Positions 16,774 through 33,481 are shown, counted from the first letter of the stretch. The stretch: 64,000 nt of DNA from a bacterium (GCA_963693055.1 OY843751.1:2464001-2528000), one strand, 5' to 3'. Notes: a model not told the origin generated them from the letters alone. Numbers and translations are program-made.

Positions 16774-18816
16774 ATGAATCCGGTTCCCGTTGTTACGACT
16801 ATTGAACACAAGTGTAAACGCTGTTATTCATGCGTTAGGAATTGTCCTGCCAAAGCTATCAAAGTTGAAAACGGTCAAGCTAAAGTTATGGCCGAACGAT
16901 GTATTGCTTGCGGTTATTGTGTTCGTGTTTGTTCACAAAATGCTAAACAAATTCGAGATGATCTTGCACCAACTTTAGATTTTTTAAAAAATAATACTCC
17001 TGTTGTTGCTATCCTAGCACCATCTTTTCCTGCTGCTTTTCCAGAAAATAATCCAGATACAATTATTTCAGCATTAGCTGAAGCAGGCTTTTCCAAAATA
17101 TTCCCAGTCGCTTTGGGTGCAGACATTGTAAGCTATGAATATCAACTGCTTTATCAATCTAAGGTTATGCCAGTTATTATCTCTTCTCCTTGTCCTGCAA
17201 TTGTGAATTATATAGAGAAATATGATCCTGCTTTGACATTGTGCCTGGCTCCTGTTGTATCACCTATGATCGCTACCGGTCGTTTTCTCAAACAAGCATT
17301 AGGAGAATCTACCCGTATAGTTTTTATTGGTCCTTGCATTGCCAAAAAAAAGGAAATGACAGACAAGAACGTTGCGGGCGTAATTGATGCAGTATTGACT
17401 TTTGAAGAAGTAAAAGCGCTATTTTATCGAATGCATATTGATCCTACAGAATTGCCCCCTCGAGAGTTTGATGGCCCTGAAGTAAATTGGGGAAGGTTGT
17501 TTCCTATATCCGGTGGATTATTGAAAAGTGCTGATCTGCAATCAGATATTATGGATAATGATGTTATCATTACCGAAGGTCGGGACAGGGTTATGGAAAT
17601 TCTTCAAAAATCATCCAATGGTGAAATTGAAGCCAAATTCCTTGATCTTTTATTTTGTGAAGGTTGTATCAATGGACCTAAAATTGACACTCCACTTTCT
17701 GTTTTTGTAAAAAAAGACAAGATTGTTAATTACATTAAAAAGAAGCAGAGTAAAAAGGGTTTTAAAAATTTTATATATCCTATAGATTGTAAACGCAGGT
17801 TCAGTAACGATTATCAGCTAATGCCAGCACCAACACAAAAAGAAATTCAAAATATTTTATATTTCACAGGTAAGCGAAAACCAAATGATGAATTGAACTG
17901 TGGTGCTTGCGGATATAATTCTTGTCGTGAAAAAGCAATTGCAGTTTTTCAGGGACTTGCAGAAGCTGAAATGTGTTTACCCTTTCTTGTAGAAAAACTA
18001 GAAACAATACAGAATAAGCTGGAAACCAATAACAAGGAACTAAATTCTTCAATTGAAGCACTTCAACGCACGCAGGAACAACTTGTGCAATCTGAAAAAA
18101 TGGCCTCGGTTGGTCAACTTGCAGCGGGTGTTGCCCACGAGTTGAATAATCCACTGGGTGGGATTATGGTTTTTGCGAATTTACTGCTTGAGCAAAAAGA
18201 CAAAAATGACCCTGATCTTTCTGATTTGACCCGAATCATTCACGAAGCTGAGAGGTGTAAAGCAATTATCTATGGATTGCTCGATTTTTCACGACAATCG
18301 CACTTGCAAGCTGCTATTGTAAATTTGAATAAAATTATTCTTAGTACTTTGGATCTGGTCAAGCACCAATCATTATTTCAAAAAATAGATATGAAAATTG
18401 AACTCAATCCTACTATTGGTCAAATATTTGCCGATGTGGGGCTTTTACAGCAAATATTTCTGAATATCATTTTCAATGCAGCCGAGGCAATGGAAGGAGA
18501 TGGATGTTTTATTGTTTCGTCTTATATGAGTCAAGATCATAAATATGTCATAGCAGAATTTACTGACACAGGCCCTGGTATGTCTAATGAAATTGTTAAA
18601 CGTATTTTTGATCCTTTTTTTACAACAAAGCCCCCGGGTCAGGGTACCGGTTTGGGATTATCCATGTGCTACAGTATTATCAAGCGTCACAAAGGGGAAA
18701 TCAAAGTGTCCAGCCAGTTGGGAGTAGGCACTACTATAATTATACAATTACCCAATTCAATTGAAATTGAAAAAGATATAACAGAATTATACCCCCATAA
18801 AATTTATTCACTTTAA
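16774..18816 (+). CDS. Sensory (group C-like) [FeFe]-hydrogenase domain fused to an NtrB-type histidine kinase
   Basis: 2x[4Fe-4S] (CKRCYSCVRNCP, CIACGYCVRVC); H-cluster motifs SSPCPAI, GPCIAKKKE, LLFCEGCING; FeS domain NCGACGYNSC...MCLP; H-box AHELNNPL; N, G1, F and G2 boxes (NAAEA, DTGPG, FDPFFTTK, GTGLGL). Alternative TTG start at 16741. Confidence 0.88.
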   Translation: MNPVPVVTTIEHKCKRCYSCVRNCPAKAIKVENGQAKVMAERCIACGYCVRVCSQNAKQIRDDLAPTLDFLKNNTPVVAILAPSFPAAFPENNPDTIISALAEAGFSKIFPVALGADIVSYEYQLLYQSKVMPVIISSPCPAIVNYIEKYDPALTLCLAPVVSPMIATGRFLKQALGESTRIVFIGPCIAKKKEMTDKNVAGVIDAVLTFEEVKALFYRMHIDPTELPPREFDGPEVNWGRLFPISGGLLKSADLQSDIMDNDVIITEGRDRVMEILQKSSNGEIEAKFLDLLFCEGCINGPKIDTPLSVFVKKDKIVNYIKKKQSKKGFKNFIYPIDCKRRFSNDYQLMPAPTQKEIQNILYFTGKRKPNDELNCGACGYNSCREKAIAVFQGLAEAEMCLPFLVEKLETIQNKLETNNKELNSSIEALQRTQEQLVQSEKMASVGQLAAGVAHELNNPLGGIMVFANLLLEQKDKNDPDLSDLTRIIHEAERCKAIIYGLLDFSRQSHLQAAIVNLNKIILSTLDLVKHQSLFQKIDMKIELNPTIGQIFADVGLLQQIFLNIIFNAAEAMEGDGCFIVSSYMSQDHKYVIAEFTDTGPGMSNEIVKRIFDPFFTTKPPGQGTGLGLSMCYSIIKRHKGEIKVSSQLGVGTTIIIQLPNSIEIEKDITELYPHKIYSL

Positions 18817-18868
18817 TACCACTTAAAACTTACTTTAATGATTTTTAATTAGTATATTTTGTAATTAT

Positions 18869-18886
18869 CTGTGAAAAAAATCACAA
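18869..18886. promoter_or_regulatory. Rex/CRP-type operator 1 (CTGTGAAAAAAATCACAA)
   Basis: 12/14 match to the Rex consensus TTGTGAA-N4-TTCACAA and an exact TGTGA-N6-TCACA; just upstream of the -35 box. Confidence 0.65.
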
Positions 18887-18902
18887 ATTTTACAAAAAAT
18901 AC

Positions 18903-18931
18903 TTGCTTTTCTGATATTGATTTCTTATTAT
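18903..18931 (+). promoter_or_regulatory. Sigma70-type promoter of the hydrogenase operon
   Basis: TTGCTT (18903)-17 nt-TATTAT (18926), between two operator palindromes. Confidence 0.6.
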
Positions 18932-18940
18932 TTATTAGAG

Positions 18941-18958
18941 TTGTGAAAAAAATTACAA
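18941..18958. promoter_or_regulatory. Rex/CRP-type operator 2 (TTGTGAAAAAAATTACAA)
   Basis: 12/14 match to the Rex consensus; just downstream of the predicted +1, a repressor position. Confidence 0.65.
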
Positions 18959-19177
18959 CTTGTCCTTTCTTATTCTAACACTCTACTATTTCTTTTGGGG
19001 CCACGGTCAACCATCCTCAAATTTTGGCCCATTCCAATACTTGCGACTTGTGTGTATTGCAAAAGCACGGTGTGGATATATACTATTGGAACTGAACTGA
19101 TCGGTATTTAAAAATTCATTACTCTGATTTTGATTATTGTATTTCGATCTAGAGCCACTATTATGCTTTGAGGATTG

Positions 19178-19345
19178 ATGATGCACTTTGATTTGAAGTC
19201 TATTCGGGACAATTTTTTTACATCACTCCGGTTGAATATTATTCCGGTATTCAGGAATTCTCATATTCAGAACTTTTTTAATTTTATTCGTGATTTAATT
19301 TTGAGATCTTTAGCCTTTGTAATTTTATTGGAGGCAATAAAATGA
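19178..19345 (+). CDS. Putative 55-aa leader/small protein, not in the ORF track
   Basis: GAGGA at 19170, ATGATG at 19178, open frame MMHFDLKSIRDNFF...VILLEAIK; the stop overlaps the next start as ATGA (19342-19345). Confidence 0.35.
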   Translation: MMHFDLKSIRDNFFTSLRLNIIPVFRNSHIQNFFNFIRDLILRSLAFVILLEAIK

Positions 19346-20409
19346 TTGTAAATGCTGATGATTTTATCAAGTTTTTAAAAACTTGTCAGGAATCAAAATT
19401 GTTAGGATACGAACAGGCAATTGTACCTGTTGTATCGGCTAATCCTAAAAACAAAGAACTTGTTTTTTCTCCTGTTAATACTGAACGCACTATTGAACTC
19501 GATACCACCCGGACCATTGATCCTTTGAAAAATCTGTATTATGTTCCTCGGGAAAAAATTTATCCAACTGAATTCAAGAATATCAAACGAATAATCGCCG
19601 GTGTCAAAGCATGTGATTTAAAAGCCATTTCAATACTCGATAAAGCATTATTGTTAGACAATTTTGTTGATCCTTCTTATGAGCATTGGCGCAATAATAC
19701 ATTGATTATTTCTACAGACTGTTCAGAACCCTCACCTGCATGTCATTGTACTTTAATGGATGGTTCTCCATATCCTAACGCGGGTTTTGATATTAATCTC
19801 TCAAGAGTATTGGGCAATTATCATATAACTGTAGGATCCGATAGAGGAAAACAATTTGTTGAACACATGGCTATGGAAGTAGAGATTGTTGATGCTTTAC
19901 CTGATGTTAAGGATCAGGTTGAAGCAAATCGAAATAAAATGGAAAGATTGATTGAGCAGCTTAACCAGGATTTTGTACGAACTACTGACTATGAAGAAAT
20001 AAGACATGACAGTATTAATGTATGGCAGCAAAGATCAAAGGCTTGCGTTGGCTGCGGTGCTTGTACGAATATTTGTCCTACCTGTTATTGTCTTATATTA
20101 AATGACGAGTCCAAAGCCGAACAGTTTATCAAAGTCAGATCACAGGATTCCTGTCAGTTAAATGGGTACGCTCGTGTTGCAGGAGGTGGGACTCCACGTC
20201 CGCAAATGTTTTCCAGGTTTCGAAATAGATATCTGTGCAAACTTTTATTTATGAAATCAAATTTTGGAGAGATCGGCTGTACAGGTTGTGGACGATGTAC
20301 TGAAGCTTGCCCTGCTCAAATTGATTACCGTCAAGTTGTAGAGGACATTGGTCATGAAACAGCATTTGAAAAAGTTTCTCAGGATAAATTAGAGGGAGAT
20401 GAGTTATGA
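19342..20409 (+). CDS. AsrA/HydB (sulfhydrogenase beta)/FlxB-like 4Fe-4S dicluster protein
   Basis: GVKACD, DCSEPSPACHC, CVGCGACTNICPTCYC, RxxDSC, RFRNR and CTGCGRCTEACP. Confidence 0.85.
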   Translation: MIVNADDFIKFLKTCQESKLLGYEQAIVPVVSANPKNKELVFSPVNTERTIELDTTRTIDPLKNLYYVPREKIYPTEFKNIKRIIAGVKACDLKAISILDKALLLDNFVDPSYEHWRNNTLIISTDCSEPSPACHCTLMDGSPYPNAGFDINLSRVLGNYHITVGSDRGKQFVEHMAMEVEIVDALPDVKDQVEANRNKMERLIEQLNQDFVRTTDYEEIRHDSINVWQQRSKACVGCGACTNICPTCYCLILNDESKAEQFIKVRSQDSCQLNGYARVAGGGTPRPQMFSRFRNRYLCKLLFMKSNFGEIGCTGCGRCTEACPAQIDYRQVVEDIGHETAFEKVSQDKLEGDEL

Positions 20410-21227
20410 GTAATCCGTATGAGGTTATCCCGGCAGTTGTCTATGATGTGATCCAGGAATCTCCACTCATTCGGACATTAAGGGTAAAACCTGAAAAAGC
20501 AATCCCTTTTAAAACCGGTCAATTTATTGAATTGTCCATTCCTGGTATTGGTGAGGGTCCATTTACACCATCTTCATCACATTATATTAATGAAGAAATG
20601 GATATTACTATAATGAAAACAGGCTTTGTTACTGAATATGTTCATCAGGCCCAGATAGGTGATCGTGTAGGATTACGTGGCCCTTATGGTTCCAGCTATC
20701 CGTTAGATAAATTTGAAAACAAAGATTTACTCATTCTGGGTGGTGGTTGTGGTTTAGCACCTTTACGATCCCTTTTTCTGACATTACTGCATGACGTTGA
20801 AAGATACAAGAGTATTACATTTTTTGCAGGGGCTAAAACTCCTCAGGACTGTATTTATAAGGATTCTGTAACTGAATGGAACAAATATGATAATGTCCGC
20901 TTTGTTCGTTCGGTTGATGTTGTGCCGGATGGAGAGGATTGGGATGAAAATGTGGGCCTGGTTACTACATTGTTAGAACGACTCGATTTAACACCGGATG
21001 GGAATCCTGCCGTTGTATGTGGACCTCCCATTATGATGCGTTTTGGTACAATGGATTTATTGAATTATGGATTTAAAGAAGAAAATATCTATTTATCGAT
21101 GGAAAAAAAAATGTATTGTGGTTTTGGACAGTGTCGTCATTGTGTAATGGGCGGCTATTATGCCTGCAAAGATGGCCCCGTATTTTCTTATGCTGATATA
21201 AAGAATGAGGAGGACATTTGGGAATGA
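20406..21227 (+). CDS. AsrB/HydG (sulfhydrogenase gamma)/FlxA-like FAD/NAD(P)-binding [2Fe-2S] oxidoreductase
   Basis: GQF, RGPYG, GGGCGLAPLRS, CGPPIMM, EKKMYCGFGQCRHC...CKDGPVF. Confidence 0.9.
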   Translation: MSNPYEVIPAVVYDVIQESPLIRTLRVKPEKAIPFKTGQFIELSIPGIGEGPFTPSSSHYINEEMDITIMKTGFVTEYVHQAQIGDRVGLRGPYGSSYPLDKFENKDLLILGGGCGLAPLRSLFLTLLHDVERYKSITFFAGAKTPQDCIYKDSVTEWNKYDNVRFVRSVDVVPDGEDWDENVGLVTTLLERLDLTPDGNPAVVCGPPIMMRFGTMDLLNYGFKEENIYLSMEKKMYCGFGQCRHCVMGGYYACKDGPVFSYADIKNEEDIWE

Positions 21228-21727
21228 AACGTCTTTTTATTGATGTGCCCGGCCTGCTGGATGCCAATGTTTCGGCAGAGTCAATAGATTGTGAATACAT
21301 GTTTCATCGTTATAACCATGGAGCATTTTCATTACTTGAAGTTGCGGAATTTGCTTCTTATTGCCGCCAATGTACCGAATCGTTTTGTGTAAATGCTTGT
21401 CCGGTTGAAGCTCTTGAACGTCAACCCTCAGGAACAATTAAACGTTTCAATATGAGATGTGTTGGCTGTAAAAGCTGTATTTTAGCTTGTCCTTTTGGGA
21501 CTATATTCCCCGAAGTTATTAATTACATAACAGCAAGATGTGATTATTGTTTGAACCAGTTAGAGGCTGATCCGAATTATCAACCGGCATGTGTCAAATC
21601 GGCTCCGCACGATACTTTTGTGATGAAAGACATTGAACAAGAGAATCCGAAAGAACATGTCTATCTATACGGAGAACACCTGGCCGTTAAAAGTCCAAGC
21701 TGGCGTTATAAGGAGGGATTGGTATGA
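21224..21727 (+). CDS. HycB/CooF/DmsB-like 4Fe-4S electron-transfer protein
   Basis: CRQCTESFCVNACP, CVGCKSCILACPFG, RCDYC...PACV; ATGA overlaps at both ends. Confidence 0.85.
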   Translation: MKRLFIDVPGLLDANVSAESIDCEYMFHRYNHGAFSLLEVAEFASYCRQCTESFCVNACPVEALERQPSGTIKRFNMRCVGCKSCILACPFGTIFPEVINYITARCDYCLNQLEADPNYQPACVKSAPHDTFVMKDIEQENPKEHVYLYGEHLAVKSPSWRYKEGLV

Positions 21728-22653
21728 ATCTGGAATTGATTTTCTTTTTGTTGATATTCCCCGGCTTTTTATTTACCAGCATTCTGGGGATGACTGTTGG
21801 TTGGATTGATCGCAAAGTCTCTGCAAGATTTCAATATCGTGTTGGCCCTCCATTTTTACAGAACTTTAATGACTTTTTCAAATTACTGGGTAAGGAAACC
21901 ATTATTGTTAAAGACAGTGTGCACTCCCTTTTCATCTCTGCACCGTTTATTGCGTTTGCTGTGTTGGTGTTATTGTCTACCATCATAGGTGTTGCTTTAT
22001 TTTTTAATCAGGGCTTTGGCGGTGATTTGTTTGTTATCATGTATCTCTTGATGGTTTTTTCTGTTATGGTTGTATTGGGTGGTTCTGCAACCGGTAATGT
22101 CTATTCAAGTATTGGAGCTGGCAGAGAGATAAAATTATTGCTGGCTGATGAACTGGTTTTCATTCTAATCTGTTTGGTACCTGTCATTAAATCCGGTTAT
22201 CAACTTGATCTCCTGGGAATACTTACCGCCCAAGCACAAAGTGGAGTTTTTATCAATTCATTTTCTGGTGCAATTGCCTTTGTATTAGGTCTATTGTGCA
22301 TACAAGCCAAAATGACACTGCCGCCATTTCATATACCCGAAGCTGAAACTGAAATAGTTGAAGGACCCTTTATGGAATACAGCGGTCCACCACTTGCTTT
22401 CTGGAAATTGAACCATTTTCTCATGTGGGTGATTTTACCATTTTTACTGGTACTTTTGTTTATGGGTGGCTTTAATCTGCAAGGAATGGGTATCCTTTGG
22501 GCAGTACTCAAATATCTGCTTATCGTTGTTTTGATGATTATCATTAAAAATACAAACCCCCGTATCAAAATAGATACAGCATTAAACTTTTTCTGGAAAT
22601 ATGCTACCCCCTTGGGACTCGTTGCAATCATTTTAGCCGTGTTAGGAGTGTAA
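21724..22653 (+). CDS. Membrane-bound hydrogenase subunit, complex I subunit 1 family (NuoH/HycD/MbhM-like)
   Basis: DRKVSARFQYRVGPP...DFFKLLGKE and PFHIPEAETEIVEGPFMEYSG; multi-TM. Confidence 0.9.
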   Translation: MNLELIFFLLIFPGFLFTSILGMTVGWIDRKVSARFQYRVGPPFLQNFNDFFKLLGKETIIVKDSVHSLFISAPFIAFAVLVLLSTIIGVALFFNQGFGGDLFVIMYLLMVFSVMVVLGGSATGNVYSSIGAGREIKLLLADELVFILICLVPVIKSGYQLDLLGILTAQAQSGVFINSFSGAIAFVLGLLCIQAKMTLPPFHIPEAETEIVEGPFMEYSGPPLAFWKLNHFLMWVILPFLLVLLFMGGFNLQGMGILWAVLKYLLIVVLMIIIKNTNPRIKIDTALNFFWKYATPLGLVAIILAVLGV

Positions 22654-22655
22654 AT

Positions 22656-23075
22656 ATGGGATGGTATAATAAACGTCTTGCCAAATCGATATGGGTGTTT
22701 CATGTGAGCGCATCACCCTGTAATAATTGTGATATAGAAGTATTGGATCTGTTGACACCCAAATATGATCTTGAACGATTAGGGATCAAGCTGGTAGGCT
22801 CGGTACGTCATGCTGATGTTTTGCTGTTGAGTGGTATTATTAATCAAAAAGTGGCACCACGGGTAAAGCAGCTATATGACCAGGCTCCTAAACCCGTATT
22901 TGTAGTGGGAGTCGGTACCTGCCCATCCGGAGGCAGTTGCTTCAATAACAGTTACAATAAAGTCATGTCACGAGAAGATGTAATTCCCATTGATCTCTAT
23001 ATCCCCGGATGTCCTCCCAAACCGGAGGCTATGATTGAAGGTGTTGCAAAGCTTTTGGAGGTGCTGAATGCCTGA
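22656..23075 (+). CDS. Group 4 [NiFe]-hydrogenase small subunit (NuoB/HycG/MbhJ-like)
   Basis: CNNCDIE, RHADVLL, GTC and IPGCPPKPEA (single 4Fe-4S). Confidence 0.92.
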   Translation: MGWYNKRLAKSIWVFHVSASPCNNCDIEVLDLLTPKYDLERLGIKLVGSVRHADVLLLSGIINQKVAPRVKQLYDQAPKPVFVVGVGTCPSGGSCFNNSYNKVMSREDVIPIDLYIPGCPPKPEAMIEGVAKLLEVLNA

Positions 23076-23499
23076 TGTGAAATCTTTTATCGATAAAATG
23101 GGTGATCGAATAACCAATACGGTTGAAAAACCATTGCGTCTCTATTTTGAGGTTCCTGCTGAACATGTCAAAGAAGTAACGGGTTATCTGTTTAATGAAC
23201 TAGGGTGCCGGTTATCAACAGCAACAGCTACCGAAGTATATAGGGGAATTGAAGTATTGTATCATTTTTCTGATGATGAAACCGGTCAGTATTACTGTCC
23301 CCGAGTTGTTATGACAGACAAAGATAGTCCCACAATGCCTTCAATAACTCCTATTGTTCAGGGTGCGGAATGGATTGAAAGAGAGATGAACGAGTTTTGG
23401 GGAGTAATTTTTACAGACCATCCTAAACCAGAACGCCTTTTGTCAAAAGACCATCCCGAAAATCTGGATAAACCCTTACGCTTCAGGAGGCTGTCATGA
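23068..23499 (+). CDS. NuoC/MbhK-like hydrogenase subunit
   Basis: LYHFS...PSITP...AEWIEREMNEFWGVIFTDHP. Confidence 0.88.
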   Translation: MPDVKSFIDKMGDRITNTVEKPLRLYFEVPAEHVKEVTGYLFNELGCRLSTATATEVYRGIEVLYHFSDDETGQYYCPRVVMTDKDSPTMPSITPIVQGAEWIEREMNEFWGVIFTDHPKPERLLSKDHPENLDKPLRFRRLS

Positions 23500-24695
23500 A
23501 TGTTAATGGAACCACCAATACTGTTCCGGTAGGTCCTTTTCATCCGCTTTTGGAAGAAGCTGAATACTTTAATATCGTTGTTGATGGTGAAACCATTGTT
23601 GACATTGATATTGATATAGGCTGGATGCACAGAGGCCATGAGTATCTTTCTGAACAACGCACATTTACCCAGTCCATTTACCTGGTTGAACGTATATGTG
23701 GAATTTGTTCCACTTCGCACCCCCTTGCATGTGTGCATGCTATTGAGGATATAGACAATATTGAAATCCCATTGAGGGCACGTTATATTCGCACCTTGGT
23801 TGGCGAATTGGAACGTATACACAGTCATTTGTTGTGGCTGGGTCTGGCCGGTCATTTTATTGGTTATGATACATTGTGGATGTGGTCATGGAAATACCGA
23901 GAGCCTATTTTGCAAATGTTTGAGATTATCTCCGGTAACCGCAACCATTATGGAATGATGCGGGTAGGAGGCGTTGCACAGGATGTGGATCCGGATAAAA
24001 TACCCATCTTGATTGATCATATGGATGAAATTGCTCAAAAGATGGACATGATTGCCAAAGCTGCCAATGATGATCCGGTTTTAAAATCACGTCTTGTCGG
24101 AGTTGGTGTGCTTACTCATGAAGATGCGATCAATTATTGCGCGGTAGGTCCAACGTCACGCGCATCGGGTGTACCTGCGGATGTACGTAAATCAGAGGAT
24201 ACTGACGCTTATTCTTTGATCGATTGGAATGTCATCGTCCTTGAGCATGGTGATGTTTATGACAAGCTGGTCGTTCGTGTATTGGAAACCGTTGAATCGA
24301 TCAAGATCTGCAAAATCTGTCTGGAAAAGCTCAAAACCGTGCAAGGTCCGATTCTAAATAAAGTTAAGGAAATTTCACCTGGGGAGGGTATTGGTAGATA
24401 TGAAGCTCCACGTGGTGAAGTTTTTCATTATATTCGTTCAGATGGCACTAACAGGCCTATTCGCCACAAGGTACGTGCCCCGAGTTTTGTTAATATTCCA
24501 ACCTTTGCTGCAACATGCAAAGGCGCTTCACTTGCAGATGCATTAATTACTACTGCTTCTGTTGATCCGTGTTATTGTTGTACAGAACGATCCTTACGTG
24601 TCAAAGATACAGGTTCAAATGTTCTGGATGTGGATTTACTGGAACTTTCCCGAATAAAGACCAATGAAATCAGGAGGGAGATCCATGGAGTTTAA
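23496..24695 (+). CDS. Group 4 [NiFe]-hydrogenase large subunit (MbhL/HycE-like)
   Basis: GPFHP, GWMHRGHE, L1 ERICGICS, ELERIHSHLLW, EAPRGE, L2 DPCYCCTER followed by a ~34-aa C-terminal extension. Confidence 0.95.
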   Translation: MNVNGTTNTVPVGPFHPLLEEAEYFNIVVDGETIVDIDIDIGWMHRGHEYLSEQRTFTQSIYLVERICGICSTSHPLACVHAIEDIDNIEIPLRARYIRTLVGELERIHSHLLWLGLAGHFIGYDTLWMWSWKYREPILQMFEIISGNRNHYGMMRVGGVAQDVDPDKIPILIDHMDEIAQKMDMIAKAANDDPVLKSRLVGVGVLTHEDAINYCAVGPTSRASGVPADVRKSEDTDAYSLIDWNVIVLEHGDVYDKLVVRVLETVESIKICKICLEKLKTVQGPILNKVKEISPGEGIGRYEAPRGEVFHYIRSDGTNRPIRHKVRAPSFVNIPTFAATCKGASLADALITTASVDPCYCCTERSLRVKDTGSNVLDVDLLELSRIKTNEIRREIHGV

Positions 24696-26496
24696 TACGC
24701 TGGTTTTACTTGTTACTGTCCCTCTGGGGATTGCTGTACTGAATCTGGTTTTACCCACATTACTACAAAAACTGTCAATGGTTGTGGGGACATTGAGTTT
24801 AATGTGGTTTTCTTTTTTGCTCTATAAAAGCGGCAATATGGTTTGGGATATGAATGATCAGGTGTTTTTACAAACTACACCCTTGTCGGTTTTATGTATT
24901 GTATTTGTTCAAATTATTTCCTTTATCATTCTGCTATTTGCGATAAAAGGTATGAATCCTGATCTTGAGCACAGGTTTTTCATTTTGTTTCCATTAACTA
25001 TTGCCTTAAGTAATGGTGCGTTGGCGAGTGATCATAGTATCTTTTTTCTCATATTTTGGGGGTTTTCAGGTGTGTTGCTTTATCTGTTTGGTGTAATGTC
25101 CGGAAATGGAGATGCATCTCAATCTGCTAAAAAGACATTCATGATTATTGGTGGTAGCGATGCATTTTTAATTATGGGCTTTGCTATTTTGTGGACCCTG
25201 CAGCCCGGTTCCAACTGGTCTTTAAACGCATTAAATGTTCCTCTCGATAGTGGCATGTCATGGTTGGCATTGATATTTTTACTTTTGGCTGCTTTTGCCA
25301 AAGCTGGATGTTTTCCTTTCCATACCTGGGTGCCGGATTACAGTCGGGATACGCATGTAGAAGCCGTAGTTTTGCTGCCTGCATCGATTGACAAACTTTT
25401 GGGTATTTACCTGTTGGCCATGATTGTAACTGTATTTTTTCAAGCCACTTTGTTACTGCACATGATACTGATCACTGTAGGTGCGGTTTCTATTATTACC
25501 GCGGTTATGATGGCGTTAACACAGCATGATGGTCGTCGTTTGCTAGGTTACCATGCTGTTAGTCAGGTTGGATATATGGTGCTGGGTGTTGGCAGCGGCA
25601 ATTTGATTGCTTTTGCAGGTGGGTTGTTCCACATGATCAATAATGTGTTATACAAAAGCGGATTGTTTCTTTCTATGGGTGCGGTTGAGAAAAAGACCGG
25701 TACACATGATCTTGATAAACTTGGTGGACTAGCTCGCTGTATGCCTTTAACATTCATAATGGCTTTGGTAGCAGCGTTATCTATTTCAGGAATTCCTCCT
25801 TTTAATGGATTTTTCTCCAAATGGATGATTTACCAGGGATTGGTTGAAATGGCTGGTTCCATGGCACCGGGCTATCAGCTTTGGTTATTGTTGTGTTTAA
25901 TTCTGGCTGTCTTTGGTAGCGCATTAACCCTTGCCAGTTTTCTGAAATTTATCCATGCTGTATTTCTGGGCAAACGTCCTGAAAAATACAACAATGTTGA
26001 TGAAGCACCAGCTAATCAATGGCTTTCAACCGGAGTTCTGGCATTATTATGTTTGGTTTTCGGATTATTTGCTATACAGGTTCCGCTAAAACTTTTTATA
26101 CTTCCCATTGCGGGTGTTTCTATAGAGTCCCTGCCATTTATTGGATTATATCAGCCGGTTATTATTTCTATACTATTTTTAATAATGCTAATCTTTGGTT
26201 TATTGATATATCGTACTGCCCGCACTGTTCGGTATGATCAAAATTATATTGGTGGCATGCCGGCCCATGAAAAATACCGCGTTTCCGGTACCGGATTTTA
26301 TAACGAAATACGTCGCATGTCTCCGCTCAAAGCATTGTATGATGCTGCTGAGAAAAAGATATTTGATATTTATAATCAGGGAGCCGGTATTACCAATGGT
26401 TTTGCGGCCTTGTTCCAAAAAGCCCATCCGGGTCAGTTACAGTTGTACCTGTTGTATATGATAATCGGTTTGTTGATTTTTATTTTCCTTATTTAG
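24685..26496 (+). CDS. Antiporter-like subunit (MrpA N-terminal part/NuoL/MbsH'-like) with C-terminal lateral helix
   Basis: AGGAGG before ATG 24685; KAGCFPFHTWVP, RRLLGYHAVSQVGY, HMINNVLYKSGLFL and GIPPFNGFFSKW; hydrophilic tail then a final TM helix. Confidence 0.88.
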   Translation: MEFNTLVLLVTVPLGIAVLNLVLPTLLQKLSMVVGTLSLMWFSFLLYKSGNMVWDMNDQVFLQTTPLSVLCIVFVQIISFIILLFAIKGMNPDLEHRFFILFPLTIALSNGALASDHSIFFLIFWGFSGVLLYLFGVMSGNGDASQSAKKTFMIIGGSDAFLIMGFAILWTLQPGSNWSLNALNVPLDSGMSWLALIFLLLAAFAKAGCFPFHTWVPDYSRDTHVEAVVLLPASIDKLLGIYLLAMIVTVFFQATLLLHMILITVGAVSIITAVMMALTQHDGRRLLGYHAVSQVGYMVLGVGSGNLIAFAGGLFHMINNVLYKSGLFLSMGAVEKKTGTHDLDKLGGLARCMPLTFIMALVAALSISGIPPFNGFFSKWMIYQGLVEMAGSMAPGYQLWLLLCLILAVFGSALTLASFLKFIHAVFLGKRPEKYNNVDEAPANQWLSTGVLALLCLVFGLFAIQVPLKLFILPIAGVSIESLPFIGLYQPVIISILFLIMLIFGLLIYRTARTVRYDQNYIGGMPAHEKYRVSGTGFYNEIRRMSPLKALYDAAEKKIFDIYNQGAGITNGFAALFQKAHPGQLQLYLLYMIIGLLIFIFLI

Positions 26497-26520
26497 TCAT
26501 ACAGGAGCATGGAGGATACT

Positions 26521-27072
26521 ATGCCTGTTGAAACATGGTTGACATTTACATTAGGATTTATGGTTATTGGATCCATTGTAGCGTTGGAAATCAAAGACAT
26601 TCTTTCTTCAATTATTGCCATTGGCATTGTGGGCCTGGCTGTATCGGTTTCATTCCTGTTTTTGCAGGCCCCTGATCTTGCGATTGTTCAATTTTTATTT
26701 GAGATATTTGCTTTAATCATTCTGGTGCGTGCGTTTATATCCAAAGAAAACCACGAGATGGAACCCGTCAAGGCTGGTAAAATGATAACTGCAATATCAA
26801 TCCTCGTATTAATTGCTATTTTTGCCGGCAGTATCCAGTTCTTTCGCTTAATGCCGGCTTTTGGTGATCCGATTTTGGGAACAGCAGCTCACTATTTGGA
26901 AAACGGTGCAGTTGAGACGGGCGCAGCAAATCTGGTTAGCTCAATAATTTTAGATTATCGTGCTTATGATACACTGGGTGAGGTTACCGTTTTGTTTACC
27001 GCTATATTGGGAACCATAACTATTTTAAGAATACGGACAAATTCAAAACAGACAGGAGGTACCGAGTCATGA
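26521..27072 (+). CDS. MbhD+MbhE fusion (DUF4040 + MrpA C-terminal part)
   Basis: LQAPDLAIVQ and NLVSSIILDYRAYDTLGEVTVL motifs. Alternative start 26509. Confidence 0.88.
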   Translation: MPVETWLTFTLGFMVIGSIVALEIKDILSSIIAIGIVGLAVSVSFLFLQAPDLAIVQFLFEIFALIILVRAFISKENHEMEPVKAGKMITAISILVLIAIFAGSIQFFRLMPAFGDPILGTAAHYLENGAVETGAANLVSSIILDYRAYDTLGEVTVLFTAILGTITILRIRTNSKQTGGTES

Positions 27073-27518
27073 ATGATAAGAAAGGAATGACATTGATAGT
27101 AAAAACAGTCTCTCGTCTCTCTGTTTGGTTAATTCTACTGTATGGTATGTATATCATTTTGCATGGACATCTAACTCCGGGTGGAGGCTTTGGTGGAGGC
27201 GTAATCATCGCTTTGGCATTTTTAAACATACTGCTTGCCTATGGTAAAGACTTTACTCAGTCCTGGATCAATATTCATGCATTTGAGCGATTTGAAAGTT
27301 TAAGCGCACTATTGTTCCTCATTATTGGTATCGTTGGTATTGCAACAGGTGTTTCGTTCCTGTTTAATTTTCTTCAACATGGTTCGCTGTTTCATTTGTT
27401 AAGTGCCGGTACAATTCCGGTTTTAAATATTATTATTGGCATCAAAGTATCATTGTCACTGTTTCTTGTGATTTGGGTTTTGGCCGGTATTAAAATAGCC
27501 AAAGGAGACAACGCATGA
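27069..27518 (+). CDS. mnhB: Mrp/Mnh antiporter subunit B (MbhF-like)
   Basis: HGHLTPGGGFGGG signature. Confidence 0.9.
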   Translation: MNDKKGMTLIVKTVSRLSVWLILLYGMYIILHGHLTPGGGFGGGVIIALAFLNILLAYGKDFTQSWINIHAFERFESLSALLFLIIGIVGIATGVSFLFNFLQHGSLFHLLSAGTIPVLNIIIGIKVSLSLFLVIWVLAGIKIAKGDNA

Positions 27519-27853
27519 TCATCTATTATTTGTGTTTTGCGCTCTTTCTTGTGGGAGTGTATGGAGTATTAACAAAACGGGATTTAATTAAAATCATTCT
27601 CTCGGTTGCAATTATGGGGTATGCAGCAAATATGTTTTTAATCCTGTTTGCTTATAAAAAGGATGCCATTTATCCCATTCTCACAAGTACAGAAAATATT
27701 AAAGCCATGGTAGATCCTTTACCTCAGGCGCTAGTTTTAACGTCTATTGTTATTGAGCTGGGTACAACTGCGTTACTGGTAGCACTAGCAGTTAAATTGT
27801 TTGAAAAATATAAAACCTTTGATATTACCAAAATAAGGAGATTGCACGGATGA
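27515..27853 (+). CDS. mnhC: Mrp/Mnh antiporter subunit C (MbhG-like)
   Basis: DPLPQALVLTSIVI signature; 3 TM. Confidence 0.92.
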   Translation: MIIYYLCFALFLVGVYGVLTKRDLIKIILSVAIMGYAANMFLILFAYKKDAIYPILTSTENIKAMVDPLPQALVLTSIVIELGTTALLVALAVKLFEKYKTFDITKIRRLHG

Positions 27854-29325
27854 TTCTACCGACTTTTATTGTCATCCCCCTGGCGGCTGCCTTTCTTATT
27901 ACCCTTATTGCAGGTAAAAAAGATATCTGGGGAATTGCCATTGCACTGGTTGCTACACTAGCGTTACTGATTCTATCCGTTTCCGAATTTATAACATTGG
28001 ATGGTGAAACTCAAACATATGAAATGGGAGGGTGGATTGTTCCAATCGGAATTGTGTTGGTCAAAGACGCATTAACCTGTTTTATGCTTATTATCAGCAG
28101 TTTGATAGCCTTTACATCTTTATTGTATTCCATACAATATATCCGTCATCTTTCAATGGATTGGAAATACTATGCATTGTTTATGCTGCTGCTTGCAGGA
28201 ATGAATGGTGTAACTATTACCGGTGATTTGTTTAATCTTTTTGTCTTTATGGAAGTAGCATTACTGGCCGCTTTTTCACTTGTTGCTTATGGAGGCAGAG
28301 CAGAAGAGTTTGAAGCTTCGTTCAAATACGCTGTAATGGGTGCCGTTTCATCCAGTATTGTGCTTATTGGTATTGCGGTAACATATACCACCACTTCTAC
28401 TCTGACATTGGCTGGTATTGCCAAAGCACTGCATGCTGCTGATCCCGCACTTGCATTATGGATTGGTGCTATATTCCTTGCCGGATTTGGGCTCAAAGCT
28501 GCTGCCATGCCGTTTCATGCATGGCTGCCGGATGCACACTCTTCTGCACCCGCGCCAATATCTTCAATGTTGTCAGGAGTATTGATAAAGGTTTTAGGAA
28601 TCTATGTACTGGTTAGGATATTTTTCAATGTATTGGGAGCGCCGCAACTTTTTATGACTCTGTTCCTGATCATTGGTGGAATATCGGTTGTGATCAGCGG
28701 ATTGCTATCCGTTGGACAATGGGATATAAAACGATTGCTTGCTTATAGCAGTATCAGCCAGATTGGTTATATTTTGCTGGGTTTGGGTTTGGCAACCCCT
28801 TTGGGCATATTGGGGGCGGTTTTCCATATGTTTAATCATGCCGTATTCAAAGCCTTATTGTTTTATAATGCGGGCAGTGTTGAAATGATAACCGGCACCC
28901 GTGATCTCCACAAGATGGGAAACCTGGGCAAGCTGATGCCTGTAACCTCGGCTACTTCATTAATTGCATCACTAGCGATTTCGGGAATTCCTCCTTTTAA
29001 TGGATTTTTTAGCAAGCTTTTAATCATTATTGCGCTTGTACAGGCCGGGCATCCCGTATATGCTATTATTGCTATTGCGGGCAGTTTGTTGACTCTTGCC
29101 GCCTTGATGAAAGTACAACGTCATGGCTTTCACGGAGATGCTGAAATGGTTGAGCCTAAAGAAAAAATTGGCTGGAACATGAATTTAGCCATGATTGTAC
29201 TTGCTGTAATCTGTGTTGTTTCCAGCTTGTTGCTGCTACCCGGCATCAAAGAAGTAACCCTTGATCCTGTTGTGACAGTCATTGTTGAAAATGCAAAATA
29301 TACCCAGTTTGTTATGGGGAGGTAG
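27850..29325 (+). CDS. mnhD: Mrp/Mnh antiporter subunit D (MbhH-like)
   Basis: TGDLFNLFVFMEV, KAAAMPFHAWLPDAH, KRLLAYSSISQIGY, NHAVFKALLF. Confidence 0.92.
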   Translation: MILPTFIVIPLAAAFLITLIAGKKDIWGIAIALVATLALLILSVSEFITLDGETQTYEMGGWIVPIGIVLVKDALTCFMLIISSLIAFTSLLYSIQYIRHLSMDWKYYALFMLLLAGMNGVTITGDLFNLFVFMEVALLAAFSLVAYGGRAEEFEASFKYAVMGAVSSSIVLIGIAVTYTTTSTLTLAGIAKALHAADPALALWIGAIFLAGFGLKAAAMPFHAWLPDAHSSAPAPISSMLSGVLIKVLGIYVLVRIFFNVLGAPQLFMTLFLIIGGISVVISGLLSVGQWDIKRLLAYSSISQIGYILLGLGLATPLGILGAVFHMFNHAVFKALLFYNAGSVEMITGTRDLHKMGNLGKLMPVTSATSLIASLAISGIPPFNGFFSKLLIIIALVQAGHPVYAIIAIAGSLLTLAALMKVQRHGFHGDAEMVEPKEKIGWNMNLAMIVLAVICVVSSLLLLPGIKEVTLDPVVTVIVENAKYTQFVMGR

Positions 29326-29327
29326 GC

Positions 29328-29834
29328 ATGAATTTAAAATTAAAAAGTCGCATTATTGTTTTTATCTTGTCTTTCCTGGTTTGGATTGCGTTAACAAGCT
29401 ATAAAGATGTTCAGGAGATTGTTGCCGGATTGATTGTCGCGTTCATAGTATCCTGGGCTGCCGGACATTTCTTTATCACTACTGAAAAACAGCATGGTAC
29501 AATTAGGCGAATATTTGCAGCCATTCGATATATGTTTAAATTCTTGTTTGAAATGATTCGGGCCAATTTGCATGTAGCCTATATTGTTGTGCATCCTAAT
29601 TTACCTATCAAGCCGGGTATTGTAAAAATAAAATCTAATCTTACCAAAGATTCAGCATTGACCATACTGACAAATTCAATCACACTTACACCAGGAACAT
29701 TAACCATTGATATCAATCCTGATACCAAAGAGATTTATATTCACTGGATTGATGTTTTATCCACAAAAATTGAAGAAAATACCCAAAACATCGGACAACG
29801 TTTTGAACCCTTGTTGATGGAGGTGTTTGAATGA
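29328..29834 (+). CDS. mnhE: Mrp/Mnh antiporter subunit E (MbhA-like)
   Basis: PGIVKI...LTNSITLTPGTLT...YIHWI. Confidence 0.92.
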   Translation: MNLKLKSRIIVFILSFLVWIALTSYKDVQEIVAGLIVAFIVSWAAGHFFITTEKQHGTIRRIFAAIRYMFKFLFEMIRANLHVAYIVVHPNLPIKPGIVKIKSNLTKDSALTILTNSITLTPGTLTIDINPDTKEIYIHWIDVLSTKIEENTQNIGQRFEPLLMEVFE

Positions 29835-30169
29835 GAATCTTGAGATGGATTGTTGGATTCATTCTGATAACAGCTTTTTTTGTATACAATTTTGTTTTTT
29901 ATGATGGCCTTTTGCTCTTTAAACTGATCAATGTCAGTCTGTTTTGTACGTTGTTTGTGCTTTATAGAGTAATTGTAGGGCCTACACCAGCTGACCGAAT
30001 TGTTGCTGTTGATATTTTGGGTGTATTGATTGTGGGTATGCTTGCTATTCTTGGTATGTATTATGATCAAAATTTTTTCCTGGATATAGCCTTGATTTGG
30101 GCGTTATTGAGTTTTATTGCATCACTGGCTTTTTCAAAAATCCTTGAAGGGAGGCAGTTGGATGATTAG
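29831..30169 (+). CDS. mnhF: Mrp/Mnh antiporter subunit F (MbhB-like)
   Basis: RVIVGPTPADRIVAVD...DIALIWALLSFI. Confidence 0.9.
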   Translation: MRILRWIVGFILITAFFVYNFVFYDGLLLFKLINVSLFCTLFVLYRVIVGPTPADRIVAVDILGVLIVGMLAILGMYYDQNFFLDIALIWALLSFIASLAFSKILEGRQLDD

Positions 30170-30500
30170 AGAAAATATAGGCATGGTTTTTATTTTTATC
30201 GGCATTGCTTTTGATTTCTTTGGTGTGTTGGGACTCGTACGATTGCCGGATGTTTATAATCGGCTGCAAGCAGCAACAAAATGCGTAACCTTTGGATCAG
30301 CTGGTATATTGTTTGGCGTGTTTCTGATCTATGGATTTAACAATTTTGGATTCAAAGCTATATTGGGAATTATATTTATCTTTTTAACATCACCCGTTGC
30401 CGCGCATGTCATTTCACGAGCAGCACATCGCAGTGGAATTCCGTTAACCCCGGAAACAGTTATTGACGAGTATCAGAACGATAATGAATTAAAAGATTAA
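30162..30500 (+). CDS. mnhG: Mrp/Mnh antiporter subunit G (MbhC-like)
   Basis: GLVRLPDVYNRLQAATK and TSPVAAHVISRAA; ATG 30162 after GGAGG. Confidence 0.92.
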   Translation: MIRENIGMVFIFIGIAFDFFGVLGLVRLPDVYNRLQAATKCVTFGSAGILFGVFLIYGFNNFGFKAILGIIFIFLTSPVAAHVISRAAHRSGIPLTPETVIDEYQNDNELKD

Positions 30501-30530
30501 TTAAACATTAACCTCTTTTGGAGACGTTAT

Positions 30531-31133
30531 ATGTTTTTACCCAAATTACGTGAAATCAAAGAAGCGCTGACTTCCTTTTTCAGTGCGCCATATACAACAA
30601 AATTCCCGGCAGAACCGTTTACCGCGGCCAAAGAATATAGAGGTCATCCCCGCTATAATGCTGAATTTTGTATTGGTTGTGGTACTTGCTCTCAGGTATG
30701 CCCTTCAGGTGCCATATCATTTGAGGATGATATTAAAAATGCCACCCGAACTTTGACAGTGGATTATAATGTTTGTATAAATTGTGGGCAATGCCAGGAG
30801 CATTGTATTACTGAACGCGGCATAACTCTGACCAATGAGCACTCGCTGGCTTATATGGATAAAACAGTTCCTGAATCTAAAGAATCTTTGGAACGAGAGT
30901 TGGCAATCTGTGAAAGCTGTGGTAAAGTAGTTGCCTGTAAGAGTCATTTGGTTTGGATTAAAGAACGGCTTGGAGCCAAAGCATATGCGCACCCCAATTT
31001 TATACTGCAAACCCAGGAACAGTTTTTTAATCTTGATCCATATCATGTCAAAAGCCAGATCAGACGTGAAGACCAGTTTAAAATGGTTTGCGCAAAATGC
31101 AGGAATATGATTGTGGTTGTAGATGAATTTTAA
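30531..31133 (+). CDS. NuoI/HycF/MbhN-like 2x[4Fe-4S] hydrogenase subunit
   Basis: PYTTKFP...RG, CIGCGTCSQVCP, CINCGQCQEHC, plus extra CESC and CAKC pairs as in HycF. Confidence 0.9.
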   Translation: MFLPKLREIKEALTSFFSAPYTTKFPAEPFTAAKEYRGHPRYNAEFCIGCGTCSQVCPSGAISFEDDIKNATRTLTVDYNVCINCGQCQEHCITERGITLTNEHSLAYMDKTVPESKESLERELAICESCGKVVACKSHLVWIKERLGAKAYAHPNFILQTQEQFFNLDPYHVKSQIRREDQFKMVCAKCRNMIVVVDEF

Positions 31134-31596
31134 TGATTTAAAAACAGCGTTATCACCTTATTATCCCTCAGATATTGTATTTCTTGCCCTGGGCAATACT
31201 TTTAGAGGTGATGATGGTGTGGGAATTATTTTTACTCAATACTTGCAAAATACTCAAGAGTTTAGTTGTGCTAATTTTATCTTTGCATATACTACACCTG
31301 AAAATTATTTACAGCAGATTATTGAAATAAAGCCCAAATTGATTGTTTGTATTGACTCGGCCCGGATGGGGAGCGGGCCGGGGGATATTCAGTGGTTGTC
31401 TCCTTCAATGCTGGATTCATTCAGAATCAGCACTCATGCATTTTCAATTTTAATGATAGAAACGTATCTGAAAAATTTTACCCAGTCTCATTTTTTTTAT
31501 ATTGGGATTGAACCGCAACAAACCCTGCCGGATCAAGGCTTATCTCATATTGTAGAAAATCAATTGGCCCTTTTTTTTAAAACAGTTCTTGTATGA
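31123..31596 (+). CDS. Hydrogenase maturation endopeptidase (HycI-like)
   Basis: LGNTFRGDDGVG, TPEN, IDS, STH and GIEP; last gene of the operon. Confidence 0.9.
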   Translation: MNFNDLKTALSPYYPSDIVFLALGNTFRGDDGVGIIFTQYLQNTQEFSCANFIFAYTTPENYLQQIIEIKPKLIVCIDSARMGSGPGDIQWLSPSMLDSFRISTHAFSILMIETYLKNFTQSHFFYIGIEPQQTLPDQGLSHIVENQLALFFKTVLV

Positions 31597-31672: not shown

Positions 31673-32473
31673 ATGAAATATCCCAACTCTACAATTTTCA
31701 CCATTGTCATGATTTTAGTAAATCTGCTTCTGGCTGGAGAAAAGAATACACATACAATTCTCCAGGAATGGCAGCTTATTTACAAGGAAAATAATGCTCA
31801 GGGTATTACGATTGTATATGATTTAAATAATGATCAGTATTATTATAATGATACAATTAGGGCCAGGAAACAATATTTACCTGCCTCAACATTCAAATTA
31901 CTCAACTCTTTAATTGCGCTTGAAACCGGTGCAATTAAAGATGAAAATGAAGTAATTAAATGGGATGGAGTGGATCGCGGAATTCCTCAATGGAACCAGG
32001 ACCATTGTTTAAAAACCGCCTTTTCCAATTCCGTTGTCTGGTTTTATCAGGAATTGAGTAGACGTATTGGTCGTAAACGCATGCAGCAATATGTAAAATT
32101 GTCAGATTATGGTAACCATGAAATAAACGGAGCATTAGATAGTTTTTGGCTTGATGGACAATTGCGAATAACTCCGCTTGAGCAAATTGAATTTCTAAAA
32201 CGGCTCTATTTTGAGCAATTACCTTTTTCCAAAAGAAATTTAGAAATTGTTAAAAGAATCAGTATTGTTGAACAAACCAATTCTTATACATTGCATGCCA
32301 AGGCGGGGTGGGCAACCAGTGTGTTTCCAAATGTTGGCTGGTGGGTGGGATATCTGGAGCAAGATAATAATGTATATTTTTTTGCTACAGAAATAGATAT
32401 ACTCGATCCACCGGATAGGGATAAAAGAGAAAAAATAACCCGGGAAATTTTAAAATCTATGAATCTTTTTTAA
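31673..32473 (+). CDS. blaOXA: Class D (OXA-like) beta-lactamase
   Basis: Signal peptide; PASTFK, SVVW, YGN, FWLDG, KAG (normally KTG), GWWVGY. Confidence 0.82.
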   Translation: MKYPNSTIFTIVMILVNLLLAGEKNTHTILQEWQLIYKENNAQGITIVYDLNNDQYYYNDTIRARKQYLPASTFKLLNSLIALETGAIKDENEVIKWDGVDRGIPQWNQDHCLKTAFSNSVVWFYQELSRRIGRKRMQQYVKLSDYGNHEINGALDSFWLDGQLRITPLEQIEFLKRLYFEQLPFSKRNLEIVKRISIVEQTNSYTLHAKAGWATSVFPNVGWWVGYLEQDNNVYFFATEIDILDPPDRDKREKITREILKSMNLF

Positions 32474-32520: not shown

Positions 32521-32967
32521 ATGTGCCGTTTTTTAATCTGCAGTATTGTCATTTCTTTGTTTTTCATTTCCTGTTCAGACAATGTTACCGATAAAGAAGA
32601 GGTGGGTGTTGATTTTGAATATCTGGGTATGCAAAATTCCGGGTGTCTCAAGCATGGATTGGAAAAGACAAACTCTGATCAAGTCTTTTTAAAAGATTGG
32701 TTTTATTCTCAAGGAGTTCTTGATCTATCAATTTACCATCTAGCCAATTGTTGTACGGATTTTCGTGATAGTGTTAATGTTAAGTCGAATACAATCGAAT
32801 TGTATTTACAAGATGTTCACCCAAATTGTCGCTGTATATGTGATTATACTACAGATTACTCGTTCCGGTTACCTGCGCCATCTGTATATAAAATTGAATT
32901 TTATTACAAAGGTTATCTGGCAGAAACCTATACCTGCACATTAGATACTATAATTCATGTTCAGTAA
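32521..32967 (+). CDS. Cys-rich lipoprotein, paralogue 1
   Basis: Lipobox FISC; YLGMQNSGCL, ANCC, CRCIC. Confidence 0.8.
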   Translation: MCRFLICSIVISLFFISCSDNVTDKEEVGVDFEYLGMQNSGCLKHGLEKTNSDQVFLKDWFYSQGVLDLSIYHLANCCTDFRDSVNVKSNTIELYLQDVHPNCRCICDYTTDYSFRLPAPSVYKIEFYYKGYLAETYTCTLDTIIHVQ

Positions 32968-33006
32968 GGTAAACCATTTTTAACTACTAGTTAATTGGGA
33001 TATAAT

Positions 33007-33453: not shown

Positions 33454-33481
33454 TTTTATTTTCAATTCAAAGGGTGTTGCC

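Follow-up and report, generated by a model that had tools for sequence, protein, structure and literature searches.

What donates electrons to a group 4 [NiFe] hydrogenase whose genes share an operon with an NAD-type flavoprotein and a full set of Mrp-type subunits? We address this question for an operon at positions 19342-31596 of a bacterial DNA stretch of 64,000 nucleotides (GCA_963693055.1 OY843751.1:2464001-2528000; the whole stretch is called the window). The operon encodes the 16-subunit Hun membrane [NiFe] hydrogenase of anaerobic bacteria together with its protease, an architecture that is already published. We see an even chance that Hun would be an NADH:H+ oxidoreductase, reversible and coupled to ions, through which the cell would chiefly get rid of excess NADH by releasing H2. 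This proposal, drawn from sequence and structure comparisons and from gene context, is weighed below against other donors and another direction of flow.

Identity of the operon

The region holds 17 open reading frames (ORFs) on the + strand with overlapping or nearly touching ends: at first-start coordinates the gaps range from -53 to +30 nucleotides (nt), and 8 of the 16 junctions are 4-nt overlaps (Table 1; the likelier starts of genes 3, 8 and 15 were read from the sequence). A non-coding gap of 525 nt lies upstream of the first gene, hunA. The 17 genes, their order and both Ni-binding CxxC motifs, as given in a preliminary description of the window, were confirmed by the ORF listing and by Pfam and NCBIfam scans, which provided the family assignments. 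The same description had listed no Fdh, CODH, AsrC or Hdr gene, and none of the 17 proteins matches a model of such a catalytic subunit; within the operon, where they were sought, we found neither an AsrC siroheme subunit nor a formate dehydrogenase. The gene order recurs in many phyla and is therefore beyond chance. The genome that contains the window is a single contig of 6.54 Mb, 100% complete, and the closest named relatives of its large subunit, HunG (74-80% identity), are from Marinimicrobia/Fidelibacterota, KSB1, Ignavibacteria and Calditrichota.

The cluster had been recognised before: it bears the name Hun, and accounts of it exist from Saganbacteria and Elusimicrobia. In their description of the Hun supercomplex hunA-P, Glass et al. 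(bioRxiv 10.1101/536078) give 16 subunits and a proposed ferredoxin input, class HunG in group 4g, with a CGIC-CYCC signature and an Mrp-type arm, and name Kosmotoga, a cultured carrier; group 4g has been reported as polyphyletic (PMC13582414). The Hun letters of Glass et al. map one-to-one onto the gene order of the window. Both versions have Asr-like HunAB without AsrC, a core of HunEFGP, and membrane subunits HunD and HunH-O, with no structural difference between them; the window copy has a protease and is without the optional molybdopterin-domain gene. Thus the window carries the traits that define Hun: AsrA/B-like hunAB with an FeS hunC and no asrC, a large subunit with CGIC and CYCC, and a full Mrp/Mnh set with two antiporter-like subunits and NuoH. 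A quick HunG tree, with our own matches as tips, includes Thermotogota and Omnitrophota, phyla that were named for Hun; the group 4b row fell on a long branch of this tree, and its placement was left unused.

The Saganbacteria cluster is the 'enigmatic' group 4 hydrogenase of RX5A (PMC6349859), whose authors pointed out FAD/NAD domains in its AsrB, compared them with NuoE/F and left the donor unknown, and the Elusimicrobia cluster is a 'Mbh-Mrp-oxidoreductase' of unknown function (10.1101/765248). Both resemble the window in their asrA-, asrB- and cooF-like genes, group 4 core and Mrp subunits; the former, unlike the window, contains a molybdopterin oxidoreductase. Two papers on Antarctic lakes take group 4g plus Mrp as a ferredoxin-driven Mbh. 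The operon does not have the make-up of MBH (4d), MBS/Mbx, AsrABC or formate hydrogenlyase (FHL; 4a/4b/4f), nor that of the group 3b soluble hydrogenase I (SHI), as its large subunit is complex I-like, and the hunA and hunB products score under the curated cut-off of every SHI or Asr equivalog model (HydB, HydG, ShyB and ShyC included).

An NAD(P) module on a group 4 enzyme, put forward in the preliminary description, has also been suggested before in silico (PMC6349859, PMC13582414), most explicitly for group 4b, where Takano et al. 2026 (PMC13582414) proposed that [NiFeSe] clusters with SHI-beta/gamma homologues link H+/H2 to NADP(H). Group 4b resembles Hun in that the genes of a group 4 hydrogenase are accompanied by those of an SHI-type NAD(P) module, but differs in its Hyf-type membrane arm, fused NuoC/D, selenocysteine (Sec) in the L1 motif and Fdh-like third branch; its large subunit is only 40-42% identical to HunG. 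Literature searches, with most subscription journals outside their scope, yielded no biochemical study of Hun and no paper arguing for NADH input to Hun itself, in agreement with the earlier statement that no characterised example was known.

The electron input module

The flavoprotein HunB bears on the donor. Its best sequence match is SHI gamma (E = 4.9e-51), and its AlphaFold model (pLDDT 92.7) is matched best by the NADPH-bound SHI gamma of Pyrococcus (9NF0_C, E = 3.9e-30, TM-score 0.91). The beta and gamma subunits of SHI (9NEZ/9NF0) are homologous to HunA and HunB; unlike Hun, SHI is soluble, has a group 3 large subunit and an NADP-type residue at the position of HunB Asp171, and lacks ion coupling. 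Among 66 rows, the PFTPS, GGGxGxAP and CGPP motifs and the four [2Fe-2S] Cys of HunB are kept in 65-66 (GxGxAP, CGPP and the Cys in all 66). All 80 metagenome rows keep them too, although CGPP and part of the Cys, unlike PFTPS and GGGxGxAP, had served as seed patterns for that set. Asp171 is present in all 66 of the former rows and, by pairwise alignment, in 76 of the 80 metagenome rows; the other four have TVD shifted by two residues, which gives 80/80 if the shift is allowed. In HunB the strand responsible for reading the adenosine ribose ends with the segment S-V-D171, whose Asp aligns with that of the NAD enzymes PyrK (ATDD) and NqrF (LSDP), while the NADP-using SHI gamma has V-T-R (VTRD) at this position. 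In the FNR family, such an Asp disfavours NADP. The residue shared with PyrK and NqrF, together with this rule, points to NADH over NADPH as the probable substrate of HunB. The earlier idea of an NAD(P)H input gains support from residues and withstands the comparison of gene linkage given below, and the cofactor looks like NADH and not NADPH.

Beyond HunB in the proposed electron path, the candidate wire is formed by HunA, HunC and HunP. HunA has 15 invariant Cys. HunC of the window has 12 Cys, corresponding to three clusters and not four, and has lost the N-terminal one. Among its orthologues the N-terminal (fourth) cluster is absent in 48 of 68 and present in 20. The best fold match of HunP is HycF of FHL (7Z0S_F, TM-score 0.64 over 194 columns), against a TM-score of 0.39 for MbhN, and the Cys quartet of its C-terminal extension (C127, C130, C187, C190) is kept in 47-49 of 49 rows. 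The FHL of Escherichia coli (7Z0S/7Z0T; PMC9474812) has a similar HycB-/HycF-like wire with an extra Cys quartet, and differs from Hun in its FdhF input, single antiporter subunit and absence of an Na+ module. Since the HycF extension binds HycB in FHL (PMC9474812), the core of Hun is probably covered by HunC at its entry face, and HunAB would stand where FHL has its formate dehydrogenase. In the proposed enzyme, NADH would give a hydride to the FAD of HunB, and electrons would pass from the [2Fe-2S] cluster of HunB through the clusters of HunA to HunC, HunP, HunE and finally the Ni-Fe site in HunG.

These features bear on two other donors. Glass et al. (10.1101/536078) proposed that reduced ferredoxin feeds HunABC, and under this model H2 would be evolved and H+ or Na+ pumped outward as in MBH, leaving the flavin of HunB as a side branch or relic. 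The reaction would be downhill and conserve energy, ferredoxin is the HydDB default for group 4g, the solved large subunit nearest to HunG is that of MBH, four PFOR-family matches occur in the host genome, and Rex, discussed below, can control a ferredoxin-linked Ech. However, a relic would not be expected to hold all FAD and nucleotide motifs invariant across 46%-78% identity; the premise that AsrAB draw on ferredoxin conflicts with the FAD/NAD domains and with the NADPH-bound SHI structure; and HunP is HycF-like, not MbhN-like. We regard ferredoxin input as unlikely.

A branched enzyme, with ferredoxin entering at HunA or HunC and NADH at HunB, would either confurcate or partition electrons between NAD+ and H+. 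Such a model has been proposed for the group 4b analogue (PMC13582414). The 15 invariant Cys of HunA suffice for more clusters than a simple wire needs, and the N-terminal cluster of HunC varies, being lost in the clade of the window. Against branching, the sole flavoprotein is of the FNR/PyrK type, a fold that is not known to bifurcate, and the operon has no HdrA-, NfnB-, EtfB- or NuoF-type subunit; a branched Hun therefore seems very doubtful.

Linkage of the input genes to the hydrogenase

We collected 80 GTDB loci by their large subunit (57-98% identity), of which 55 have at least 4.7 kb of upstream DNA. In 53 of these 55, hunA, hunB and hunC stand directly upstream of the core, a count that measures conservation and not independent events, because the loci were chosen by similarity to the window and kin are not independent. 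Of the remaining two, one has hunB and hunC upstream and the other hunC only; in both, hunA (in L048 also hunB) is found on the same contig and strand, past an inserted Mbx-like cluster. L020, where the upstream DNA is short, has hunABCD together on another contig. The reverse search, with 80 metagenome loci found by HunB alignment, gave the same picture where enough DNA was available: hunA upstream in 68/68, hunC downstream in 57/62 and the large subunit in 34/36. Of the five loci without an adjacent hunC, two carry an Mbx insertion, and in the other three, L136 among them, the next gene is CRP-like. Among 40 relatives of the host, 17 have HunG at 71% identity or more, and the identical 17 have HunB at 71% or more. 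In this co-occurrence search hunABC thus travel with the hydrogenase, and the absence of the first three genes from orthologous operons, which the preliminary description had named as fatal to its proposal, is not what we see (53/55 loci, 17/17 relatives).

The linkage also bears on whether HunAB could be a soluble NAD(P)H:ferredoxin-type module of their own, free or loosely attached, and share nothing but regulation with an Mbh-like hydrogenase. An Mbx-like cluster is inserted after hunA or hunAB in four Cloacimonadota-like loci (L048, L034, L119, L122) and parts these genes from the core, hunA is decayed or elsewhere in L045, and the input subunit of FHL is itself loosely bound (PMC9474812). 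On the other side, hunA, hunB, hunC and hunD are joined by 4-nt overlaps at their likely starts, the linkage is as given above, and the identity of HunB in the close clade (65-78%) is near that of the large subunit (74-80%). A separate module is, in our view, highly improbable.

Several loci depart from the gene order of the window. In L177:1434-15783 (G001:C5), L178, L119 and L122, a whole Mbx/MBS-like cluster sits within the hun operon, giving a Cloacimonadota-like super-operon for two complexes, a layout read from the GTDB genomes of L048 and L034; the inserted cluster has an Mrp set, a large subunit without Ni ligands, and a NuoI fused to a GltD-like FAD/NAD(P) domain. A molybdopterin-Fe4S4-domain gene lies between hunB and hunC in L135:3689-5401, as noted by Glass et al., and one clade (L139:6862-7314, L142, L152) has a cNMP-binding (CRP-like) gene at the same place.

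Hydrogenase core and membrane arm

HunG carries the Ni-binding motifs ERICGIC (C68, C71) and DPCYCCTER (C359, C362), and its best solved match is the large subunit of MBH (6CFW_L, E = 5.5e-87). The CGIC and CYCC motifs are present in 79 of 79 rows, a count that is partly circular, since DPCYCCTE was among the six seed patterns. The MBH of Pyrococcus furiosus (6CFW), whose MbhL is closest to HunG, has the subunits of the Na+ module in common with Hun; it has one antiporter subunit and a short MbhN (PMC8165549), whereas Hun has two antiporter subunits, a HycF-like HunP and the fixed hunABC. MBS (6U8Y) lacks a Ni site, in contrast to HunG with all four Ni-binding Cys, and both MBH and MBS take electrons from ferredoxin (review PMC8165549).

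Hun has two antiporter-like subunits, as do MBS and Mrp. HunL keeps the charged axis (E135, K216, K247, H326, K389). HunH, which aligns with MbsH' over nearly its whole length, has Gly133 where MrpA, MbsH' and MbhH carry the Glu of transmembrane helix 5 (TM5), and this Glu is missing in 50 of 52 rows, while K213, K244, H323, K386 and an extra Asp166 are present in 52 of 52. The TM5 Glu is retained in the Mbx-type and 4b-type subunits of related loci. Thirteen rows that looked like MrpD with a Gly in place of this Glu proved to be HunH cross-hits from truncated loci and not variants of HunL. Either the HunH channel is detuned or Asp166 compensates, and ion coupling may be reduced by the loss of the TM5 Glu. 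Among the loci collected, L059:11218-12630 encodes an additional antiporter subunit in a Hun variant. The operon contains the only Mrp-type genes found in the genome with the queries used.

Regulation and host metabolism

Two Rex-like boxes, by the consensus of PMC6391272, lie 474 and 402 nt before hunA. With a weight matrix trained on sites of other genomes, they rank 6 and 5 in 6.5 Mb, and a similar pair before one of the two rex genes of the genome ranks 7 and 24. Of 52 GTDB loci, 10 have such boxes before hunA (one of them a near-identical sister genome), compared with 12 of 2600 mononucleotide shuffles and none of 379 segments within the operon; of 60 metagenome loci, 19 have them, compared with 14 of 3000 shuffles. 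The neighbour of hunA is a rex gene in 20 of 80 metagenome loci and 5 of 80 GTDB loci. The predicted Rex sites tie the operon to a surplus of NADH and leave the donor unnamed; in the proposed scheme, Rex would switch the operon on when NADH/NAD+ rises. A sigma-70 promoter scan of 18780-19400 gave 4 sites versus 3.9 expected, and no terminator was found there.

Elsewhere in the genome, Rex-like boxes at G000:C1:3454619 and 4395808 precede an NfnA/SudB-like gene (recognised from its N-terminus) and the second rex gene, which lies in an FeFe hydrogenase cluster. Just upstream of the operon, 16741-18816 (+) encodes a fusion of a histidine kinase with an FeFe-hydrogenase domain, of the group C sensor type, which has a 47% paralogue in an FeFe hydrogenase cluster elsewhere in the genome and close homologues upstream of hun in L001, L025, L040, L073 and L099; such fusions were noted in 10.1101/765248.

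From its genes, the host looks like a fermenter. Its genome has one NiFe large subunit, hypD with hyp-like neighbours, 7 FeFe-domain, 5 NuoF-family and 4 PFOR-family matches, and two Rnf/Nqr-family loci that we read from their ORFs as one Rnf and one Nqr; a genome search gave no complex I. Glass et al. (10.1101/536078) assume ferredoxin and an Na+-ATP synthase for Hun, whereas the flavoprotein of the window looks NADH-type and the single F-type c subunit of the host is without the Na+ motif.

Computed from standard potentials, NADH to H2 costs +18 kJ/mol under standard conditions and +15.5 kJ/mol at 1 kPa H2 and NADH/NAD+ of 0.03, and crosses zero near 1-100 Pa H2, depending on the NADH/NAD+ ratio; at H2 pressures beyond roughly 10-100 Pa it is uphill. 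The cost is that of about one ion at 150 mV, so that a low-stoichiometry enzyme could run in either direction. In the proposed mechanism, the uphill step would be paid by ion inflow through the membrane arm, down a gradient made by Rnf, Nqr or ATPase, and a low ion stoichiometry would fit the loss of the TM5 Glu in HunH. With slightly less than even confidence, we suggest that Hun is a relative of complex I that carries electrons from NADH to Ni-Fe through an SHI-type module, performing reverse electron transport at a deliberately low ion stoichiometry with one antiporter detuned.

The same wiring could also serve H2 uptake, with NAD+ reduced (about -18 kJ/mol standard), about one ion pumped out and NADH re-oxidised, for example by Nqr. 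This direction is downhill above about 100 Pa H2, the host has Nqr-like genes, and an FeFe sensor kinase of the group C type is encoded shortly before the operon. Yet Rex de-represses at high NADH, the wrong signal for making NADH, and at sediment H2 of 1-10 Pa there would be no energy yield; we therefore hold uptake to be quite unlikely.

Weighing the NADH proposal

The proposal of an NADH-fed, H2-venting Hun has to be set against several observations that weigh against it, besides the kinship of the loci noted above. In a profile alignment, the SHI residues near Asp171 fall into place less clearly than in the pairwise one. In L045 (G004), the hunA homologue contains an internal TAG, sits on a different contig and has downstream neighbours that are unrelated; in L136, hunB is without hunC in 2963 nt downstream; and at the four Mbx-inserted loci, hunA or hunAB may serve another complex. 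The boxes of the window alone are not significant (3 matches versus 0.95 expected; 8 of 100 shuffles reach 3), and 42 of 52 GTDB and 41 of 60 metagenome upstream regions have no box at 2 mismatches. Because Rex also controls the ferredoxin-dependent Ech in Caldicellulosiruptor (PMC6391272), Rex boxes do not identify the donor. Finally, the FeFe hydrogenases of the host adjoin NuoF-like genes and could already dispose of NADH.

Group 4b counterpart and neighbouring genes

A different group 4 hydrogenase, with fused NuoC/D and a Hyf-type arm, is found in 18 of the 40 relatives (L181:1022-11999 (G009:C6), L184-L201). In 18 of 18, an in-frame TGA stands at the second Cys of the L1 motif, with a hairpin downstream, and selA is present in 17 of 18; a Sec variant of group 4b is published (PMC13582414). 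This 4b cluster has its own AsrA/B-like pair before it (in L181 also a molybdopterin-domain gene), and in 14 of 18 the AsrB-like gene shares its contig, at a distance of about 5 kb upstream. None of the 18 genomes that carry 4b has Hun. Across the 40 genomes, relatives in the order of the host appear to have built the same device twice, as Hun or as a Sec-containing 4b, never both; in the parts consulted, PMC13582414 does not mention such mutual exclusion.

Directly after the protease gene, 31673-32473 (+) encodes a transpeptidase-domain protein with a signal-peptide-like start, presumably resembling a class D beta-lactamase/BlaR-type protein, followed by three tandem, similar, small lipoprotein-like ORFs with conserved Cys pairs (32521-33931, +). 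Further upstream, 3963-15242 (+) is a low-GC stretch (29-33%) with two ORFs of about 1850 amino acids (aa) each, the second of which resembles, by eye, a peptidase C10-like secreted protein that contains repeats and ends in a sorting domain.

Table 1. Genes of the hun operon and putative Rex operators, in window positions
Feature	Position	Strand	Assignment and features
Rex-like operator 1	18869..18886		CTGTGAA-AAAA-ATCACAA, 2 mismatches; genome rank 6; 474 nt before hunA
Rex-like operator 2	18941..18958		TTGTGAA-AAAA-ATTACAA, 2 mismatches; genome rank 5; 402 nt before hunA
hunA	19342..20409	+	SHI-beta/AsrA-like Fe-S subunit; Fer4_22, best models SHI-beta/AsrA; 15 invariant Cys; 9NEZ_B E 1.8e-38
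hunB	20406..21227	+	SHI-gamma/AsrB-like FAD/NAD/[2Fe-2S] flavoprotein; FAD_binding_6 + NAD_binding_1 + DHODB_Fe-S; Asp171 apparently NADH-type
hunC	21218..21727	+	HycB/CooF-like Fe-S wire; Fer4_11 (HycB/DmsB-like); 12 Cys; likely start ATG 21224
hunD	21724..22653	+	Membrane anchor, NuoH-like
hunE	22656..23075	+	Hydrogenase small subunit, NuoB-like; C22, C25, C89, C119 invariant
hunF	23068..23499	+	NuoC-like subunit
hunG	23496..24695	+	Group 4 [NiFe] large subunit; Complex1_49kDa + NiFeSe_Hases; CGIC...CYCC; tail of 34 residues after CTER
hunH	24664..26496	+	MbsH'/MrpA-N-like antiporter subunit, Proton_antipo_M, 610 aa; TM5 Glu -> Gly133; likely start ATG 24685
hunI	26509..27072	+	MbhD+MbhE (MrpA C-terminal part)
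hunJ	27069..27518	+	MrpB (MnhB)
hunK	27515..27853	+	MrpC (Oxidored_q2)
hunL	27850..29325	+	MrpD/MbhH-like antiporter subunit, Proton_antipo_M, 491 aa; charged axis intact
hunM	29328..29834	+	MrpE (MNHE)
hunN	29831..30169	+	MrpF
hunO	30117..30500	+	MrpG; above TIGR01300 and PRK12674 cut-offs; likely start ATG 30162
hunP	30531..31133	+	NuoI-like, Fer4, best model HycF; HycF-type C-terminal extension; Cys quartet C127, C130, C187, C190
Hydrogenase maturation protease, HycI-type	31123..31596	+	Pfam/NCBIfam

Implications

Studies of fermentation and syntrophy turn on the question how anaerobes form H2 out of NADH when thermodynamics opposes it. Two routes are usually invoked, bifurcating FeFe hydrogenases or Rnf combined with a ferredoxin-linked hydrogenase. 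The window copy does not add a new system; it adds a complete-genome context and two testable residues, HunB Asp171 and HunH Gly133. If the proposal is true, a single ion-driven membrane enzyme would add a third route to these two and stand as a natural intermediate that links MBH with the NADH-fed complex I. Such an enzyme would also change the reading of group 4g genes in many metagenome-assembled genomes, for which papers default to ferredoxin, and fermenters across many uncultured phyla would make H2 from NADH without flavin bifurcation.

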